Assembly: GCA_964016885.1 (NCBI GenBank) | Contig: OZ024741.1 | Coordinates: forward strand, 350,920,001 to 350,984,000 | Length of the DNA: 64,000 nucleotides | Source: Eledone cirrhosa | Lineage: Eukaryota | Reading direction: 5' to 3' | Shown here: one piece after another, positions 46,960 to 59,241 of the stretch | Layout of the letters: every line of letters starts with the position of its first letter | Numbering within the stretch: position 1 is the stretch's first letter | Notes under the pieces: model-generated | Database searches by the model: none | The model's input: the letters and a program-made list of their open reading frames with translations, nothing else | What the model was told of the DNA's origin: nothing | Program-made: the position numbers and the translations under genes

Positions 46960-47520
46960 GGTGTGTCATCTCTGCCTATATACAATAGATTTTATATTAC
47001 ATTTCTGTTGCAGAGGGCAGTTCTCCTTAATCCCACAAGAGCAACTTGGATTTATGTCAGGTTTGTAATTTTTGATCCCATGGATGGCCACAGGAATAGG
47101 ATATCTTCACAGAATTCTGATCGAATATTTGACTATATCTATGTTGTGGAGGGAAATATCTATCAATTAAATCTAAAAACTTCTTACCTACATTAGTCTT
47201 TACATTAAGAAAATATGAAGGGCGTAACAAAGAGATTTTTTTCTGTTTACATTCTTAGTAAGGTTGGGCTGGGATTGATTTGATGTGTACTTAATCTTGT
47301 CCTTGAATCCACTATCTAGCAGGGCCTGGTTGTAATATGGCACAGCGACATCGAATATCTCGGAGGCTGATAGATTTGAGATTCTATGATTTATATTAGA
47401 AACTAGGTTTTCAAAAAGGGGGGGGGGGGCTTTATTAGGATTATTAAGCTTATTAGAATTATCAAGGTTGTCTAATGTAAAGATGTGTTTCCTGATTTTC
47501 ATATTATTGCTAAGGCTGAG
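46960..47520 (-). mobile_element. Decayed Penelope-like element fragment
   Basis: LVSNINHRISNLSASEIFDVAVPYYNQALLDSGFKDKIKY is homologous to the PLE ORF at 51318-52859. Confidence 0.75.
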
Positions 47521-47849
47521 ATAGTCTACTAAGGTGTAGTAGACTTAATACTATTTTCATTTAAAAGCCCATGGTATCTATGGTTGAGTGGAAAGTTTCT
47601 TTCTAATATATAAAAAGATATTTTTGGTATATTTGAAGCTAATTGCCAGCCAAATGGTGGATAAAACCAGGCAGAGCAATGGCGGTAGTTACTTTTCTTA
47701 AGGCTGAAAAAATTATATTATGGGAAATGTTAAAGGAAGGATTAATTGTACTTTGGACACACTGAATAATAGATGGGATGGTCATAGATAGAATGGGTCT
47801 GCTGTAATCTGGAACTCAAGAACAACTACATATTAAAGTAGAACTTTAC

Positions 47850-47970: not shown

Positions 47971-49579
47971 CTGAAACATAAATGATAACATTACATATAT
48001 GTGCAGTAGTTACACTAATATCATATATTTAATTACATTAAAAGAAAGGAGCCAAACATCAGATCAGACCAAGAAAATTATGCTTCCATTGGTATTTCCA
48101 TTGCTGACACTGTATGCCAGTTGCAACTTCTGGCAAAAGGCTGAATCATATACTGCAAAGCATCCTATCTGACTCTTTAACAATTTTCCCAATCTACTGC
48201 TCCTGGACTGGTACTTTATTTATCAACCATAAAAGGAAGAAAAGCAAAGATAACCACGGCAATTAATACAACAAAACTGAAAAAGATGTCACTCTCTAGA
48301 AATAGCAAACACTCTGCTCTTTTTAAGATGTTCGGAAAAGATTTGAACACATTACGTAATGTAGTCCTACATGCAGGCGTGTGGCCTAGTGGTAAGGGTG
48401 TTGGACTTATGATCATAATGTCATGAGTTTGATTCCTGGACTGGGTTGTGTGTTGTGTTCTTGAGCAAAACACTTCATTTCACGTTGCTCCAGTATACTC
48501 AGCTGTAAATGAGTACCAGCAATAGCTTGGGGTTTAACCCTGCGATGGACTGGCATCCTGTCCAGGGGGAAGTTTTGAATACTCAGTCACTTCACGCCAT
48601 AAAACTGGGAAAAGGACCGGTCTAACGAGCCTTCTGGCTTAAGACAGGCATTAGGTTAAGAAGTATACTTTGCTATCAGAAGGTCCAAGGTTTAATCCCT
48701 CAGCATGGCATCTTAGGTAAAGTGTCTTTATCATAGTCTCAGATCAACCAAAGCCAAGTGAGTGAAATTGGTAAGACAGAAACAATGTGGCTTATATCTA
48801 TAATTCAAAAGTCCAGCAATGTCATATACTGTGTCATATTTTAAAGGTACACCATCTATGTACTTAGCCACTTACACATTAATTTAACATACATAAATAC
48901 ATGTTTATATACATCCATATAACGTCCTAGCCCTAAGGTTAGTAAGCGGAGCTGCTACTAACTGAGCCACGTATACATGTACATCCTTAGAACAACCATG
49001 TCCACACAGTCATACATACACATATCTCTGTACATCTATACAAAAACAAACAGAACTCAGATCTAACACATACATACATGCATTTGCATAAATGCAAATA
49101 CATACATATATACAAACACACATGCATATACATTTATAACCATTAAATCACATTCATATATAAATGCAAACACAATCCCACAGATACTAGCATATCAACA
49201 GAAACACACACATACAGAGATACATAGCTACATATATACATAAATACAAACATCACTACAGGAACAGATACATAATACAAATCAACCTTTTTGATATGAC
49301 ACCATTTAAAACCAGCCCTGGTTCTACGATACAAAACTATTTGTTCTACAGAGCTTTTGTTAAGTTATGCTCCAAACACCAGCTTAATAAAGAGAAAGTT
49401 ATTTATATTTCTAAATCCATCCCAAATTTGATTATTTAAAAATTGTAGAGAGTATCTTTAATTAAAAATGAGGTAATGAAAACGTAAATTGACATTTTTT
49501 CAATGAATTTTTTAAATATTAAAAACATTTCCATTAAAAAAAAATCATTTTTTTTGTCTTTTCGTGTTGTTTTACTTAC

Positions 49580-49702
49580 ATTCCATCTTCAATATTCATA
49601 AAAGGGGACACAGACGTCTGGGTAGTGTTTATAATGTTCTCAGAAGAAGAAGATTTCAGTTTAATTTGAGAACCATAGGATATTGGAAGCATACTGAAGA
49701 AA
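49580..49702 (-). CDS. SLC15A1/2-like exon (extracellular domain)
   Basis: ttgcag acceptor, gtaagt donor; FFSMLPISYGSQIKLKSSSSENIINTTQTSVSPFMNIEDG; phase 2/2. Confidence 0.8.
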
Positions 49703-49797
49703 CTGCAATAAAAAAAATTGAACAATCTATAACAAATATTAAAGATGTATATTTTATGCAAAACATGTCACACTGGAGAGGGGATAGTAAGAGTGCA

Positions 49798-49833
<36 letters not shown>

Positions 49834-50077
49834 CAGTTGTGGTAGTGGTTAGTGGTAATGCTGGAAATTTTATTTTTTAGATCCGAGATTACTATATTAT
49901 TTGAGTGTTCATATATATATATATATGTATATATGCATATATATATATATAATGTAGGAGGTGAGTTTTATTGTAGCACAATAAAGCAATGCAAATATTG
50001 GATAAGTAGCACTCCACACTTTATAGGACTGGAGTATAAATAATATAAGATCAAAAGATGGTTAAAAGAGTTCCAAG

Positions 50078-50148
50078 TATTTTATTATGCGCATTTCAAA
50101 AACAAATATCATCATGGGATGATATTTGCGTTCTCATCAGATAAAATA
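50078..50148 (-). ncRNA. Type I hammerhead ribozyme in the PLE 3' pLTR
   Basis: Stem I tattttat/ataaaata, CTGATGA, stem II caaatatcatc/gatgatatttg, GAAA-TGCGCA-TA with palindromic stem III. Confidence 0.85.
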
Positions 50149-53091
50149 GGGAGACATGATATGAAGCTTAAAAAACACTTGCGAGCAGTGAAGTGTTAAA
50201 TCAACATACAAAAAATAAAGTAAGATGGATATATGAGATTGGGAAAAAAAAAGAAAAAGAGGGGGTGGGGGTAGGAAAAGGTGAGGAAGAAAGAAAATAA
50301 AGGATGAAAGGATGACGAAGGAGGAGTATAAGGAAAGATGAGAGAGGAGGAGAAATGAGTGATAGAGAGAGAGAAATAGGCTTTACAACTGAGAAAACAT
50401 TGTCTTACAGAGAGAAATAAAAAAACCGTTGGAAGATAATAGATAATTTTAAAAGATTTTGAAATTAAAAGTTAATGAGGTTTATGAATGGTGATGTTTA
50501 TGATTAAAGAAAAAGGAATTAAGAATAGTATTTATTTAAGGTTTATATATTGAAGGGTTTAATAATATATGCGAAAAAAAGAATTTATTAATATGTATTA
50601 TTAAAATAAAAACATTAAGGATATAATGTGAAAGAAGGAGAGATTGAGTGAATTATGAACTTAGAGGAATTAGTTAGGGTTTAAGTTTGTTTTTAAGTAT
50701 TGTAATATGTAAAAGTAAATAATAGGTTTAATATGAGCATGGAAGGAGAGAAGAAAGAAGAAAATTTAAGGAAGAAAAAATATCTAACGTCAAAAAGTAT
50801 ATATGTTTATAAAATTTTCTAATGGTAATATTATTATATATTAAAAAAATATAGTTTCTATGGCCAATAATATAAGGAAAAATGGAAAAATGGAAAAAGC
50901 TATAGTGAGTAATAATATGAATTAAGAAGTGAGTAATAATATGAATTGGGAAGTGAAAGTTACAGATTAAAGATTAGAAATTAAAAAGGAAGAAAGGAAA
51001 AAGGATAAAAAGAAGAAAGATAGAGGACCTCTAACGACATAGAATGAATAAATTGTATAATATAATATACTGAAATAAGGTAGAAAGATGGGTATATTTG
51101 TAAAAGATATAAAAGCCTTTGAGAAAAGGAGATTTTAAACTAATTAGGTATTGAGATATTAGCTGTATACTTTATGGAAAGTTCTATGGGATTTATGCGA
51201 AAATAAATCCGTACGTCTATTTATTATAGAATTAAAATTAGATATAATGGTAAATTTCTCGGCTAGGCAGAGATTATATGTTCTGGATAGGGAAGAATTT
51301 CGGTAAGGAAAGGCGTTTCAAACCTTCCTCCAAGAGATGTTATAGTTAATATTTTTGTCTTTTAAGGACCATATGAGTTCCGAGAGTGCCGTGTTAGTTC
51401 TTTTAAGTTGGTATTTAAAAGACGATTTGTGCTTATAAAATCTTGCTTTAAAGGAAGTGGAAGTGGAACCGAAATAGGTAAAAGAATTAGTATCAGTTAT
51501 AACCTTACATTCATACACTAAGTTTTTATCTAGACATTGGTTATTAAGAGGACATTTAGTTCTAACAGGGCAATTACAATTACGATTAGAGAAATTAACA
51601 GAGTTATTAACAAATGACCTAGTATTATTTATAGAAGGAATTGGATTGGAGAAGTTATTTACGATAGGAACTATAGTTTCCTGATTTAGATTGGTGTTAT
51701 GAACATTCAACAAAGTTACGTTTGACGTCGTATTTAAATTTACTGAATCTAGCCTAGAGTTAACAATGACGTCGAGTTTACTATTGTTATTATTATGACG
51801 CTCAGTGTTGGATGGATATAATTTATTATTTAATATTTTATTATTGTGTTTAGAGATAATGTTAGAGATGTTGGAAGTGGTGGAATAAGAGAATTTGATT
51901 GTATGTTTGTTAAAGATCTTACTATAGATATGCAAGGGAGGGAAGCATTTATCTAAGGCCCTAAAGAATAGTTTAGGAATATTACTAGTAATAGATAGAG
52001 AAAAAGGAGCATTATACCAAATCATATTTTTGTATCTAGGTCTTTTATTTAAGTTATTGGAATGTTCATAATTAACTATTTTACTATAAGTCCTTCGATG
52101 ATTGGTTTCTTTACTGTATTTAATTTTATCAGGATAACCGGCTTTGGAAAGCGCATTATTATAGTAATTGGCATTAACGTCGAAGATAACTTTATTAGAG
52201 GATAGATTTGAGATTCTTTTTTCAATATTACTGACTATAGCATTTTTAACGTTAGTGGGGTGGTTAGATTTAAAATTAACATAATTTAGATTCTCATTGT
52301 CTTTATGGTAAGGGTAATATAGGCCAGTGTCAAGATTAAGGGATATATCCAGGAAGTTAGCTAGTTTGACGTTGTTATCAAATTCAATTTTAAGGTTATG
52401 GTGCTTAAATAGATCAAGTATATTGTTCTTAATAATATTAAGGTTAACTAAGTTACAGTTTAAGACAGTAAAAAGGGCATCGTCACGATAAATTCTACCA
52501 CGAAGTTGAGGATTTTTCCGATTTAAAGAATTTAAAATAAAGATACCAATTAAGTCCGTCAGTTGCGATGAATCGGACGCACCCATTGTGATATCAAAAT
52601 TGTTGGAAGTATCAGTTCTAGTCCAATATTCGATGTTGAATTCCAGGATAGTTTTTCTTGCGGTGAGAATGATGTAAAGTTCATCTGTGGTAATGTCAGA
52701 ATATTTAAATGCGAAAGATAGAGCGTTGTTGAGAATAAATTTTTGTTTGTTTTTATTATTTAGGTCATTGAACCAGTCAATTACTTCAGATGTACCAATC
52801 CATAAATTTAAGTTAGAAATAGAGCAATTAGAACGAACCTGTGGGATAATTCTATCCAAGATGGATTTATGAACAACCCCCAGATCTGATTTAGATGGGG
52901 CGATTAGTCTAACAGGCAGTTCCGTTCGAAAGTTACTTTTATGATCCTTGAGATTTATCCTCGGAGTTCTTGGGAAGAATGGTTCGGTCTTTTTCTCGAT
53001 GCCAAGTTTAGACAGAAGCTTCCAAATTGTCGTGGTTAGTTTTACGATAATTCTTCCTTAGTTCCTTAAGGATAAGGTTATTATACTTATC

Positions 53092-53938
53092 GTACCAATA
53101 ACAACGCTTTGCCTGTGTCACAGGACTTTAACTTTTGGCACACTTAGTCCCCGGGGAAGTCTTCGCGGATGGTCAGACTTCCACGGTTTAAGCCCTCTCG
53201 CCACGTCAAGGCGGTGCCGGGAAGGAGACCAACGGGCGATCGCCATCCGCGGCGAAATGTACCGTCCACCAGCCAGAGACGCCATCTAATCAGAACTGCA
53301 ATGGCATTTCACGCTAACCTGTGAAAGACAGGTGGAAAGGCACACGATGCCTGAAAGCCTCCAAGCCAAAACTATACGTCATCAAGCTAATCTAAACGAA
53401 CCGAGACGCTGTTGTCCCTCGCCCGGTGACAGCTGGCAAAAGGCTGCTCTAAGAGGCCAAGCCGTTGTGTCCGTAATCTAATCTAATCTAATCTAAACGC
53501 TCCGTCACTCGCCCTGTGACGGGTGGCCGGGAAATCCTAAGACAACCTGGCCCATGCGTTGTAAACTAAGCTAACTAACAAGAGGCCCTCGTCATCGCCC
53601 GTGACGGGTCATTTGGCTACCTTAAGAGATTTTATTTTAAGACAGGTGGAAAGGCACACGATGCCCGAAAGCCTCCAAGCCAAAACTATACGTCATCAAG
53701 CTAATCTAAACGAACCGAGACGCTGTTGTCCCTCGCCCGGTGACAGCTGGCAAAAGGCTGCTCTAAGAGGCCAAGCCGTTGTGTCCGTAATCTAATCTAA
53801 TCTAAACGCTCCGTCACTCGCCCTGTGACGGGTGGCCGGGAAATCCTAAGACAACCTGGCCCATGCGTTGTAAACTAAGCTAACTAACAAGACGCCCTCG
53901 TCATCGCCCGTGACGGGTCATTTGGCTACCTTAAGAGA
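53092..53938 (-). other. GC-rich non-PLE insert, R2-leader-like: begins with the 28S rRNA target-site sequence; ~314-bp tandem duplication (53327-53640, 53641-53949)
   Basis: Minus-strand TCTCTTAAGGTAGCCAAATG at 53610-53629 and 53919-53938; abrupt GC shift relative to the PLE. Confidence 0.6.
53137..53218 (-). ncRNA. Candidate HDV-like ribozyme core
   Basis: P2 ggcac, P3 gcc, L3 ttgacgt, P3' ggc, P1'-like gagaggg, P4 ggaagtct/agacttcc, J4/2 actaa, P2' gtgcc; P1 and P1.1 not assigned unambiguously. Confidence 0.45.
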
Positions 53939-54404
53939 TTTTATTTTAATAATACATATTAATAAATTCTTTTTTTCGCACATATTATTAAACCCTTCAA
54001 TATATAAACCTTAAATAAATACTATTCTTAATTCATTTTTCTTTAATCATAAACATCACCATCCATAAACCTCATTAACTTTTAATTTCAAAATCTTTTA
54101 AAATTATCTATCATCTTTCAACGGTTTTTTTATTTCTTTCTGTAAGACAATGTTTTCTCAGTCATAAAGGCTATTTCTCTCTCTCTATCACTCATTTCTC
54201 CTCCTCTCTCATCCTTCCTTCTTATACTCCTCCCTCGTCATCCTTTCATCCTTTATTTTCTTTCTTCCTCACCTTTTCCTACCCCCACCTCCTCTTTTTC
54301 TTTTTTTTTCCCAACCTCATATATCCATCTTACTTTATTTTTCGTATGTTGATTTAACACTTCACTGCTCGCAAGTGTTTTTTAAGCTTCATATCATGTC
54401 TCCC

Positions 54405-54475
54405 TATTTTATCTGATGAGAACGCAAATATCATCCCATGATGATATTTGTTTTTGAAATGCGCATAATAAAATA
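54405..54475 (+). ncRNA. Type I hammerhead ribozyme in the inverted PLE terminus
   Basis: Inverted copy of 50078-50148; predicted cleavage after AUA at 54467. Confidence 0.85.
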
Positions 54476-54566
54476 CTTGGAACTCTTTTAACCATCTTTT
54501 GATCTTATATATATATATATATATATATAAACGGTTGTTTTTCCTTTTCCGTACAACTTCATTCAG

Positions 54567-54609
54567 ACCGAGCTGAAGATCCGCACAAGGTGAAACATTT
54601 GTTCTCAGT
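54567..54609 (+). ncRNA. Minimal type I hammerhead motif in a ~110-bp relic between TA runs
   Basis: accgag-CTGAAGA-tccgcacaaggt-GAAA-catttg-TT-ctcagt. Confidence 0.55.
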
Positions 54610-55274
54610 ATGGTGAGCTAACTGTTGTGGAACTACTTCTATATATATATATATACATATATATATGGTGAAGGCAGATGGCTTAATGGCTAGAGCATCG
54701 GGCTTACAATCATGAGGTTGTGAGTTTGATTCCCGGACCGGGCTTTGTGTTGTGTCCTTGAGCAAGACACATTATTTCACGTTGCTCCAGTTCACTCCAC
54801 TGTAGAAATGAGTTGTGACGTTATTAATGCCAAGTTATATCGGCCTTTGTCTTCCTCTTGGAGAAGACTGGTATGGATGGGCGACTGCTGGTCTTTCACA
54901 AACAACCTTGCCCAGACTTCCCCTCAGAGGGGAACTTTCTAGGTGCAAATCCCATGGTCATTCGTGACGAAAGGGGGTCTTTACTTTACTATGCTATATA
55001 TATAATTTATAAATACAATATCTAGAATGTCATAATGATCTTCAATACTTGGTGGTTGTTTCTAATGAAACTGTGGAATGTCTATGGAGTCAGCTAGTAA
55101 TAATGGATAACTTAAACAAAAGAAAACCCACTAAAAATTGTTCCTAAATTCAAGCAAATAAAAAAATTAGATCACTGTTGGATGTTCAGTATTGGCCAAG
55201 ACGGAATATGTAAATCAACAGAATCACATTGACTAATATCTCTACTGGACAATATATAAAGGTTTAGTATAAAT

Positions 55275-55712: not shown

Positions 55713-56241
55713 GTATAAATATCAGTTATTACAGCCCACACCTATGAGGGCTTATCTGGTCTTTTACATGGTTACTTCTCATAGGCAGTTTCTTGGATGA
55801 CTTAATGATAGAGGCCCCAGTCATATTATTAAAAGACTTACCCTTAGACTGAATGTCAGTCTGTTGAATGGGTTAAACCCCAGCTGTATAGTACTCATTT
55901 TTGTTCACCTGAGTGGTCCAGAGTGATGTGAAATGAAGTGTCTTGCTTAAGGACACAATATGCTGCCTGATCCAGGAATCACACCCAAGACCTTATGATT
56001 TTGAGTTCAACAACCTAACCCTAGGCTATATGCCTTCTATATAAATATTAGTGACAGATGTTAGATATAAGTCTCAAAGCCAGTGGTTTATCCTCTGTGA
56101 ATCAATGAAAGGCCTCCATCTGGTTACACAGCCTGCCAGAAATAGCAGCTAAATCTCTTCTACCTAAAACCACATTCCTGCTGTTTTAAAAAAAGAAGAA
56201 ACAAAAAAGATAATGTCATATATAATCTGGCAGGAAGGTAT

Positions 56242-56284
56242 ACGTTGCTGACGATAGCTAATAAGCTTGAAACTAGTACAGCGT
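56242..56284 (+). ncRNA. Type I hammerhead ribozyme (unit 1)
   Basis: acgttg-CTGACGA-tagctaataagctt-GAAA-ctag-TA-cagcgt; cleavage after GUA at 56278. Confidence 0.85.
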
Positions 56285-56657
56285 TCCTTTGTCAGTGTTG
56301 AACAAACGAGCAACGATGGTTGCTAGACACTACGGCTTAATACGGGATGTTTGTTTACAAACACACCAAGCATTATAATAAATGTTCGGTGAATCCATAC
56401 GTACATATATATATGTGTGCATGTATGTATATATACATACTACTGTACGTCTGTATACATATATGTATGTACGTGTACATACTTGTATTTAAGTAACAAC
56501 CGTACTAAGGGTGAGAAATGAAATTTCGTTTCATTTTTTCCGTTTATCGTTTTCGGTGCATCCGGCTGATTAACCCACTCAATATCCAAATTGGGCTACT
56601 CAGCCATTAATATGCATAAGGTAAGTATATACGTTCAACAATCTGGCAGGAAGGTAT

Positions 56658-56700
56658 ACGTTGCTGACGATAGCTAATAAGCTTGAAACTAGTACAGCGT
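56658..56700 (+). ncRNA. Type I hammerhead ribozyme (unit 2)
   Basis: Identical to unit 1; cleavage after 56694. Confidence 0.85.
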
Positions 56701-57581
56701 TCCTTTGTCAGTGTTGAAAAAACAAGCAACGATGGTTGCTAGACACTACTGCTTAATACGGGATGTTTGTTTACAAACACACCAAGCATTATAATAAATG
56801 TTCGGTGAATCCATACGTACATATATATATGTGTGCATGTATGTATATATATATATACATACTACTGTACGTCTGTATACATATATGTATGTACATGTAC
56901 ATACTTGTATTTAAGTAACAGCCGTACTAAGGGTGGGAAATGAAATTTCGTTTCATTTTTTCCGTCATATATAAGCTATGCCTAAAAAAAAAAAGAATGG
57001 AGTGGTCACAACTGGAATGCCTTTGATCACATGTCTGCTCAATGAATGGCAACCAAGGTCTGAACAACAACAATAACAACATCATCCTCTGAGATAGACC
57101 CATCATTACTGAGTGAAATATCAGTATTGACAGTGTGATGTTATCCTCAATGACTTAGCAGATAAAACTTGCCAATAAAATAAGTACCAGTCATGTACTG
57201 GTGCCAATGTTAGAAATCTTCAGCTTTAAGTTCAATTTCTGGCAAAGTTGTCAACTTTATCTTTCTGTTATTTTTCAGTAAGGGTGGGGTTTATTGAAGG
57301 ATGGGGTTGGTTAAGGGAGTGGGGGTTATGTAGCATCGGATTAACCTAGTAGTAAGAGTAGCATTTGCTACAGGTTCCTCATTTTCAGGACCCCAACACT
57401 CAGTGCTTTATACTATAGTAATGTCACCTTTTTAAAAATTTAGGGCCTCTTTATAGTATAACCTAATCTGGCACTGGCTTTGTGGATAAGTAGCAGGGAC
57501 ATTGTGAAATGAATAACTCTAAACCCTCCTCCTTCTCCCAACTTAGTAATTGGTTTATATCCTAAGAGGTGAAATCAATTA

Positions 57582-58037: not shown

Positions 58038-59241
58038 ATCATCACCGTTTTACGTCCGTTCTTCCACGCTAGCATGGGTTAGACGGGTTGTCCTGTTGTG
58101 GGCAGTGTCCGGTCGGCTGACCTTGTCTTGCTCATATGGGAACTGATTCTGGCTTGATTTCTACAGCTGGATGCACATCCTAACACCAAACTCATTTACA
58201 GTGAGTGCTAGGTGTTTTTTTTCCGTGGCGCCTAGACGTCCATTTTACAGTGTGGGCTGGATGCTTTTTTGCCGTGGCACCTCCACAACCACTTTGCAGT
58301 GGGAGGGTGTGGGGACATATTGTCTATATGCTATTGCAGGGAAGAGTGGCTGTAAAATGATGATGATGATGATGATGATGCTTCAGCTTCGGCTTGTACC
58401 CATAGGGGGTCGTGTCATCTGTATTACTGCGTGACGCCAGAGGTCACGGTCGTGTGTCATCGCCTTTGAGAGGTGGAATTGGGTAAGGTCGGCTTTTATC
58501 ACCTCATCCCAGGTCTTCTTGGGTCTCCCCACTCCGCGGTTTCCATCGACTTCTAGTGCTCTGCACCTTTTTATGCAGCTGTCATCCTTCATACGCATCA
58601 CATGTCCATACCAACGCAACAGCCTCTCCTGCACACAGCATTTGATTCCTCTTATGCTCAGTCTCTCTCTCAATTCATTTATGCTTTGCCATTCGTGTAT
58701 ATTACTATTACACATCCATCGGAGCATGCAGGCTTTCTTTCTAATCTACGCAAGTCTTCCACTGTCAGCGCCCAGGTCTCACTACCATGTGACATTGCTG
58801 TTCATATACACGCATCATACAGTCTGCCTTTCATTTTGAGGGAAAAGCCTTTTGGAGCTAGCAGTGGCAGTAGCTCCCTGAACTTCTTCCATCCCGTTCT
58901 TACCCTAGTTATTGTACTTTCTGAACACCCACCTCCACTGCTAATTCGATCACCTAGGTAGCAGAAGCTGTCTACTGTTTCTACAGAGCCCTCCCAGAGT
59001 TTGGTGGTACTTGTTTCCTGTGGCTGTTTGCTGCCTGCTGTCCTATCACAGCTGCTGCATGTGAAGCCTACATTCTTAGTTAAGCTTCCTGAGATCCCGC
59101 TACATCTCTTGTGTACCCATTGTTTGCATTTGGGGAAGAGAATAGAGTTCCTACCTACATCTTTCCTACATACTGAACAAGGCCATTTCCCTGAGGGGAT
59201 CTGGGTTCTGTTTTCTCATCTACTTACAAGGACCTTAGTCT
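58038..59241 (-). mobile_element. RTE family B 3' fragment
   Basis: High identity to 19165-20312, with frameshifts. Confidence 0.9.

Follow-up and report, generated by a model that had tools for sequence, protein, structure and literature searches.

R2 elements are present in Mollusca (PMC5035012, PMC13188248). No paper on cephalopod R2 was found in the literature, and the main text of PMC13188248, as far as it was available, names neither octopus nor cephalopods. At the R2 5' end, 28S bases take part in the P1 stem, with cleavage 9–36 nt upstream; J1/2 is 216–498 nt long in silkmoths, and the P1–P1' distance exceeds 700 nt in the honeybee (PMC3774820). The same paper describes a fixed 22-bp duplication of downstream 28S sequence in the earwig R2, and a model in which 5' duplications lengthen J1/2. 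The R2 SIDE (Short Internally Deleted Element) of Drosophila willistoni, 529 bp long and non-coding, has an HDV-like ribozyme at the 5' end, an unrelated middle and an R2-like 3' end, and its host has an autonomous R2 (PMC3414825). R2 SIDEs outside Drosophila were not found in the literature.

L1–U6 fusions are chimeras produced by template jumps. R2 chimeras of this kind, with snU12 and tRNA, were described in PMC3414825. No direct report of Penelope-like elements (PLEs) switching templates to cellular RNA was found among the papers listed, nor was a template-switch passage found in the available text of PMC11167929. The Hydra clade of PLEs is marked by the DKT motif, a CxCX5C linker, an endonuclease without CCHH, insertion at (TA)n, and 5' truncation with an inverted terminus (PMC8557442).

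The locus considered here lies in a window of 64,000 nucleotides from Eledone cirrhosa, and each of its ingredients has a precedent. It is a decayed PLE with a foreign block at its truncation point. We consider it fairly probable that the block derives from a non-coding RNA, of which it represents the 5' 550 nt; this RNA is likely a SIDE-like non-autonomous R2 parasite and was likely copied by template switching of the PLE reverse transcriptase (RT). Like the D. willistoni SIDE, the element is non-coding, has an HDV-like ribozyme fold near its 5' end ahead of an unrelated middle, possibly ends in R2-like sequence, and shares its host with an autonomous R2. However, it is about 1.1–1.2 kb long rather than 529 bp, has a leader of about 400 nt built from repeats, and resides in a genome that is not insect-like; moreover, P1 is supplied by 28S here (predicted cut at -11), whereas it is at the junction in D. 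willistoni (PMC3414825). A further difference is that the family copies found so far lie outside 28S. As in the earwig, silkmoth and honeybee R2 (PMC3774820), 28S bases are part of the predicted P1, J1/2 is long and downstream 28S is duplicated, but, unlike in the earwig type, an antisense 28S arm comes after the duplicated stretch. As in template-jump chimeras, a foreign RNA copy would be fused in sense to a retroelement at its truncated 5' end; in contrast to them, the RT would belong to a PLE, the donor would be a retroelement RNA, and the landing point would be internal to the donor. This R2-SIDE-like family itself was not found in the literature.

The block and its host element

The window PLE occupies 49952–53091 on the minus strand. 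It is 5'-truncated and decayed, with a stop-free frame at 51318–53057, followed by the 3' UTR and terminus to about 49952 and then by (TA)n. About 130 N-terminal codons (some 400 nt of the 5' ORF) are missing, and the copy is further damaged by two deletions, one of 23 bp and the other within the RT domain, and by a frameshift near the C-terminus. The frame and its relatives have DKT and the CxCX5C linker; their C-terminal domain is GIY-YIG-like and lacks CCHH, and their flanks are (TA)n. The Pfam scan of the frame yielded no family, and Rfam listed no hammerhead ribozyme in 49500–55000. An inverted PLE 3' terminus (pseudo-LTR) is situated at 53939–54510 on the plus strand and is bordered by (TA)n at 54507–54530; its alignment with 50043–50611 has 555 matches, 14 mismatches and three gap columns. 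Hence the window copy has the DKT, CxCX5C, no-CCHH, (TA)n and inverted-terminus features given for the Hydra clade in PMC8557442, but differs in being decayed and in carrying the putative foreign RNA copy at the truncation point.

Elsewhere in the window, a piece of another PLE-like ORF is seen at 47200–47544 (minus strand), the decayed remains of an RTE-like LINE bearing a PHD-type finger (Pfam E 5.9e-6) at 58383–59215 (minus strand), and a tandem duplication of about 420 bp at 56224–56965.

Between the truncated ORF and the inverted terminus, at 53090–53938 (minus strand), lies a GC-rich block. The GC content is 0.50–0.51 across 53000–53899 and 0.26–0.35 on the flanks on either side, so the contrast described in a sequence-only reading of this DNA is real. 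However, the block of about 850 bp described there is not unique sequence: about 550 nt are foreign, a tandem duplication supplies a further 309 bp, and the foreign sequence ends at 53090 rather than 53092. The junction with the PLE ORF, 53090–53091 (minus strand), is a 2-nt microhomology common to both partners. Its position is fixed by L006, 96% similar to the block, which shows the foreign continuation, and by 29 PLE copies, which show the native PLE.

These 29 copies, counted besides the window, come from a set of 1332 candidates, of which 40 were scored and 30 fetched. The earlier proposal to check whether other copies lack the insert is answered by all of them: they continue in the ORF or reach the inverted terminus directly, and several, such as L116, L125 and L136, have the same inverted-terminus arrangement without the block. 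The block as a regular PLE part was rejected on this count (0/29), and the insertion is a dead, single-copy, one-off chimera.

The upstream tandem duplicate, 53640–53949 (minus strand), consists of 11 terminal nucleotides of the PLE terminus and the first 298 nt of the presumed captured RNA, without the ribozyme core. It is paired with 53325–53640, with two substitutions and one 5-nt indel. Since the duplicates differ less (2/309) than the inverted PLE arms (14/569) and share an identical terminus join, the duplication is probably younger than that join. An assembly artefact is unlikely, as the copies differ, a contig spans the internal join, and the depth roughly doubles: in three runs (X1–X3) contig depth over the duplicated part is about twice that over the unique part.

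These public runs belong to one sample and study, possibly the source of the assembly, and hence are not independent. Contigs were matched at a likeness of at least 85%, which leaves subfamily B (72–79% to the window, see below) under the threshold, and 28S-bearing records were possibly filtered. The depth is 9–12 on the unique part of the block, about 16–30 on most of the duplicated part, and hundreds to thousands on the PLE; as the block depth is single-copy-like (9–30), the sample appears to hold no abundant source of the window type. None of the matches listed (24 of 170 pieces and part of the loose ends) links the head to upstream 28S. Among the sequencing runs listed, no RNA run holds the block, and one RAD run has a single divergent read on it.

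The 20-mer at the block start, recognised as the 28S target site in the sequence-only reading, is indeed equal to host 28S -10 to +10 (reference L019), with a chance expectation of 1.6e-7 in the window. Because of the tandem duplication this head is present twice, at 53919–53938, directly after the inverted PLE terminus, and at 53610–53629, the latter containing the predicted P1 5' strand without its first base (-11); both are on the minus strand. The block does diverge from rRNA behind it, with the L019 match spanning just 20–28 nt; in relatives the head has 18 downstream nucleotides and then the antisense arm. This arm, an antisense copy of L019 28S +11 to +20, is located at 53586–53596 and again at 53895–53905 (minus strand). 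It folds back on the head; the hairpin folds in subfamilies B and C and is weaker in the window copy.

L019 carries the standard sequence, and a diverged host 28S was rejected as the identity of the block. Ordinary host rDNA, the 28S/IGS explanation that had been named as the alternative, also failed, given the short 28S match and the lack of an rRNA family in Rfam: the scan of 49500–55000 (E up to 5) gave seven weak matches, none to rRNA or ribozyme families. A group I or II intron and a Pokey-like DNA transposon were dropped by eye in view of the R2-type core and the fragment pattern.

Ribozyme fold and leader

The block contains a complete HDV-like fold of the R2 type about 400 nt behind the 28S head, a feature absent from the sequence-only reading. 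The core is at 53137–53218 (minus strand), with P2 at 53218, P3 at 53212, L3 at 53209–53203, P1' at 53199–53193, P4 at 53186–53151, and the predicted catalytic C at 53147. It was detected solely by comparison with the R2 elements of this genome, using a descriptor made for this analysis (P2, P3, L3, P1', P1.1, P4 and the CYAA joint). The full descriptor was observed in none of 2000 shuffles, and the partial core in 12 of 2000. In an alignment of five related rows, 97 of 100 cells are paired and four of 20 pairs show compensatory changes, while slid controls yield 28–52%; the covariation score, for these few and related rows, was reached in none of 500 shuffles. P2 differs on both strands between the two R2 lineages of the genome.

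Among the 36 heptamers of 28S -40 to -5, the best P1 partner is -11 to -5, and the same holds for subfamilies A, B and C, both R2 lineages, and the SIDE. P1' is predicted to pair with this heptamer, with the cut before -11. The predicted fold has a C-G first pair and a G-C P1.1 pair, neither of which is usual. The -11 cut falls in the published range of 9–36 and is not among the sites named in the available text of PMC3774820. In the window copy the base at -11 is replaced, and hence the captured ribozyme is probably impaired.

The J1/2 leader, about 405 nt at 53219–53623 (minus strand), is formed by diverged units of about 90 nt with starts near 53629, 53544 and 53456, each opening with a decayed target-like motif. 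The similarity of unit 1 to units 2 and 3 was reached in none of 300 shuffles in either case, and that to a fourth unit in six of 300. The unit structure is also seen in subfamily C (unit 2) and is not significant in subfamily B (15, 193 and 275 of 300 shuffles). Taken on their own, the internal decayed target motifs give a poor signal (54, 247 and 7 of 500 shuffles). A leader built in this way fits the published model of J1/2 growth.

The ribozyme core alone is not diagnostic, because an unrelated dispersed family (L147, L160, L162), which we take to be RTE-like, has nearly the same L3 and P1', with alignment scores of 10–17 compared to 12–22 for copies of R2 and of the SIDE1 family described below. 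The HDV-like cores of these three loci lie near position 1500, and the internal P1 partner in L160 also begins with C.

Related loci and the R2 site in the genome

A genome search with three query sequences identified 20 distinct loci with family pieces, all outside rDNA. Subfamily A comprises the window and L006, and probably also L023, L027 and L031; subfamily B, L004 and others that are 92–99% alike; subfamily C, L003; and L090 represents a further type. Along the window-type path the likeness is 96% for L006 and 80% for L003, and the three subfamilies are 20–28% apart. The pieces are scattered internal fragments rather than a uniform full-length repeat. Two B copies, L008:1445–1686 and L010:1501–2195, have the same internal re-start junction of about 145 nt, which suggests a source variant with a duplicated leader unit.

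Since all 20 loci are outside rDNA and the catalytic loop recurs in L147, L160 and L162, the family might be a dispersed SINE-like element that combined a 28S-derived head with a ribozyme from another LINE and never resided in rDNA. The fragment pattern just described, the complementarity of P1' to 28S kept in all three subfamilies despite their divergence, and the fusion of the 3' module to the R2 site at L062 make this very improbable.

The longest copy, L004, runs for 1092 continuous nucleotides from the head to the 3' module. L023 and L027 reach about 100 nt further and stop at one shared point, hence the full-length RNA is probably about 1.2 kb. The A, B and C pieces show no similarity to R2 proteins (tblastn with two R2 proteins, best E 0.46). 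L004 has a stop-free GC-rich frame of 215 codons, broken by an indel in L005. The 3' part of the family matches the last 560 nt of L062/L098 (59% over 429 nt, range 59–72%, E 6.5e-13, none of 200 shuffles), a 5'-truncated R2 with an R2 ORF that ends at the canonical site and is possibly itself a chimera. No match was found to the 3' UTR of the main R2 lineage 1 (L048), for which 138 and 189 of 200 shuffles were as good.

Alternatively, the block might be 5' UTR sequence from an R2 subfamily that is autonomous, such as that of L062/L098. L098 does have an R2 ORF together with the family-type 3' module, its own 5' end being missing, and the window piece stops before any ORF could appear. However, L004 passes from the head to the 3' module with no R2 protein similarity, and the window type takes the same path in L006 and L003; we regard this explanation as quite improbable and retain the non-coding derivative.

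Two R2 lineages are present in the genome, together with two or more SIDE-like families. Lineage 1 (L048, a 995-aa frame) and lineage 2 (L095, 1214 aa) have zinc fingers and RVT_1 (Pfam) and are flanked by 28S; at L095:1264–4905 the 1214-aa frame is seemingly intact, with a long 3' UTR and 28S on either side. An abundant non-coding R2 SIDE of 1.2 kb (SIDE1), also with 28S on either side, is seen at L042–L047, L050–L052, L034–L036 and L041. Its 5' and 3' ends are common with R2 lineage 1, and a dispersed SIDE1 copy, L159, begins at 28S -9. At some SIDE1/R2 junctions (L034, L112, L045, L047) the duplicated 28S reaches back as far as -19, -21 or -25; by the published model, this could place the RNA end of that family further upstream.

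The 28S fragments are scattered across many large contigs, mostly with R2 or SIDE inserts. Among 19 exact upstream-28S sites, 17 then lead into this R2-type ribozyme core and belong to the two R2 lineages and SIDE1, one is intact and one is other; four sites with one mismatch add no family member. None of these 23 upstream junctions leads into the family; with a single intact site assembled, the rDNA array is probably collapsed. For this family, the junctions do not give the hit inside 28S followed by an ORF that the sequence-only reading had named as support, nor is R2 coding similarity seen in the longest copy. The 32 downstream sites comprise 26 element 3' ends at +1, four B heads, one intact site and one short filler, and a second, further-downstream pattern gave one more 3' end, also at +1. 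At each of the 27 element 3' junctions found, 28S picks up again at the canonical +1.

The heads of the family start on 28S at -10 in the window, -12 in L004, -11 in L008, -9 in L005, and -6 in L003 and L010. All six head-bearing loci start within -12 to -6, and none extends into upstream 28S. In the B relatives L004, L005 and L008 the 28S sequence continues up to +18, and in all heads it is followed by the antisense copy of +11 to +20. The heads of A and C carry lineage-specific substitutions and always the same arm behind them; the downstream 28S bases are therefore passed down with the element rather than created anew by every insertion. The earlier proposal of an R2-related 5' leader, probably non-autonomous and with a defined 5' end, agrees with the ribozyme fold, the clustered heads and the lack of R2 coding.

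The companion proposal, an R2 forming target-site duplications or using a shifted site, with the top-strand nick 10–18 nt downstream, seems highly improbable. The head does contain 28S +1 to +18, lineage 2 also starts with downstream 28S bases (L032, L099, L112), and the head may go back to one aberrant nick at a downstream position. On the other hand, not one of the 27 3' junctions is shifted, the head is passed on with its substitutions and constant arm, and the earwig R2 likewise passes on 22 downstream bases (PMC3774820). In stacked insertions (L099:2270–2330, L112, L101, L036) the SIDE or R2 3' ends directly abut the lineage-2 5' start, and the lineage-2 head looks as if it rebuilds the target for them.

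Proposed origin of the block and its meaning

We favour a non-autonomous R2 derivative as the source. It would work like an R2 SIDE, an assignment resting on the fold, the non-coding nature and the R2 elements of the host. The family would have resided at the 28S R2 site and been co-transcribed with rRNA. With 28S -11 to -5 paired to P1', some 430 nt further downstream, the ribozyme would cut in front of -11 and free an RNA of about 1.2 kb. The PLE RT, stalled about 400 nt before its own start codon, would have jumped onto this RNA at the 2-nt microhomology and copied it to one base from the predicted 5' end. The cDNA would then have been linked to the inverted terminus of the PLE, the usual arrangement in truncated PLEs, and the 309 bp spanning that join would have been duplicated later at the DNA level. 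The agreement of the predicted cut before -11 with the head starts at -12 to -6 points to processed RNA, or its cDNA, as the substrate. Counting against this origin are the 23 upstream junctions without a family copy, the single-copy-like depth of the block, the mismatch with the lineage-1 3' UTR, the core shared with L147, L160 and L162, the SIDE1/R2 junctions that reach back to -19 to -25, the small share of loci next to an RT ORF, and the few, related rows behind the covariation.

The main rival concerns only the last steps: a free R2-made cDNA, or an rDNA fragment, might have been patched in by microhomology-mediated repair with no PLE switch. Run-off of such a cDNA would stop at the same place, and PLE capture of host DNA was proposed in PMC3846280. 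The neighbourhood of the 20 loci can be read in the same way, since 14 have no adjoining RT ORF, three adjoin an antisense LINE ORF and three a sense one, that is, the orientations are mixed. However, an rDNA fragment should pass -12 into 28S, and none of the six heads does; besides, the window piece is in sense and fused directly to a 5'-truncated ORF, and likewise those of L012 and L009 (RTE-like). L012:1453–2024 is a second PLE chimera, a B fragment joined in sense to a truncated ORF from another PLE family (41% protein identity); L023, where the neighbouring PLE is separated by (TA)n, was left out of the chimera count. We consider the DNA-level route unlikely and, for the window, infer template switching by the PLE RT.

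More tentatively, and with the balance somewhat against it, these loci may represent a distinct family of R2 parasites, whose leader lengthened as the target site and a hairpin were copied again and again, whose head rebuilds the full R2 landing site, and whose self-cleaved RNA was taken up by Penelope, RTE-like and other LINE RTs.

The leader provides a natural example of the published model of J1/2 growth by repeated 5' duplication, and the captured heads open the cleavage site to a direct test. If this more tentative reading is true, these heads would be a fossil in vivo map of a cut at -11, made by an HDV-like ribozyme whose first pair, C-G, is atypical. The PLE mechanism is poorly known; the two independent sense fusions, in the window and L012, suggest that the PLE RT can switch to foreign RNA and, if true, would provide genomic evidence of a Penelope RT jumping onto foreign RNA.
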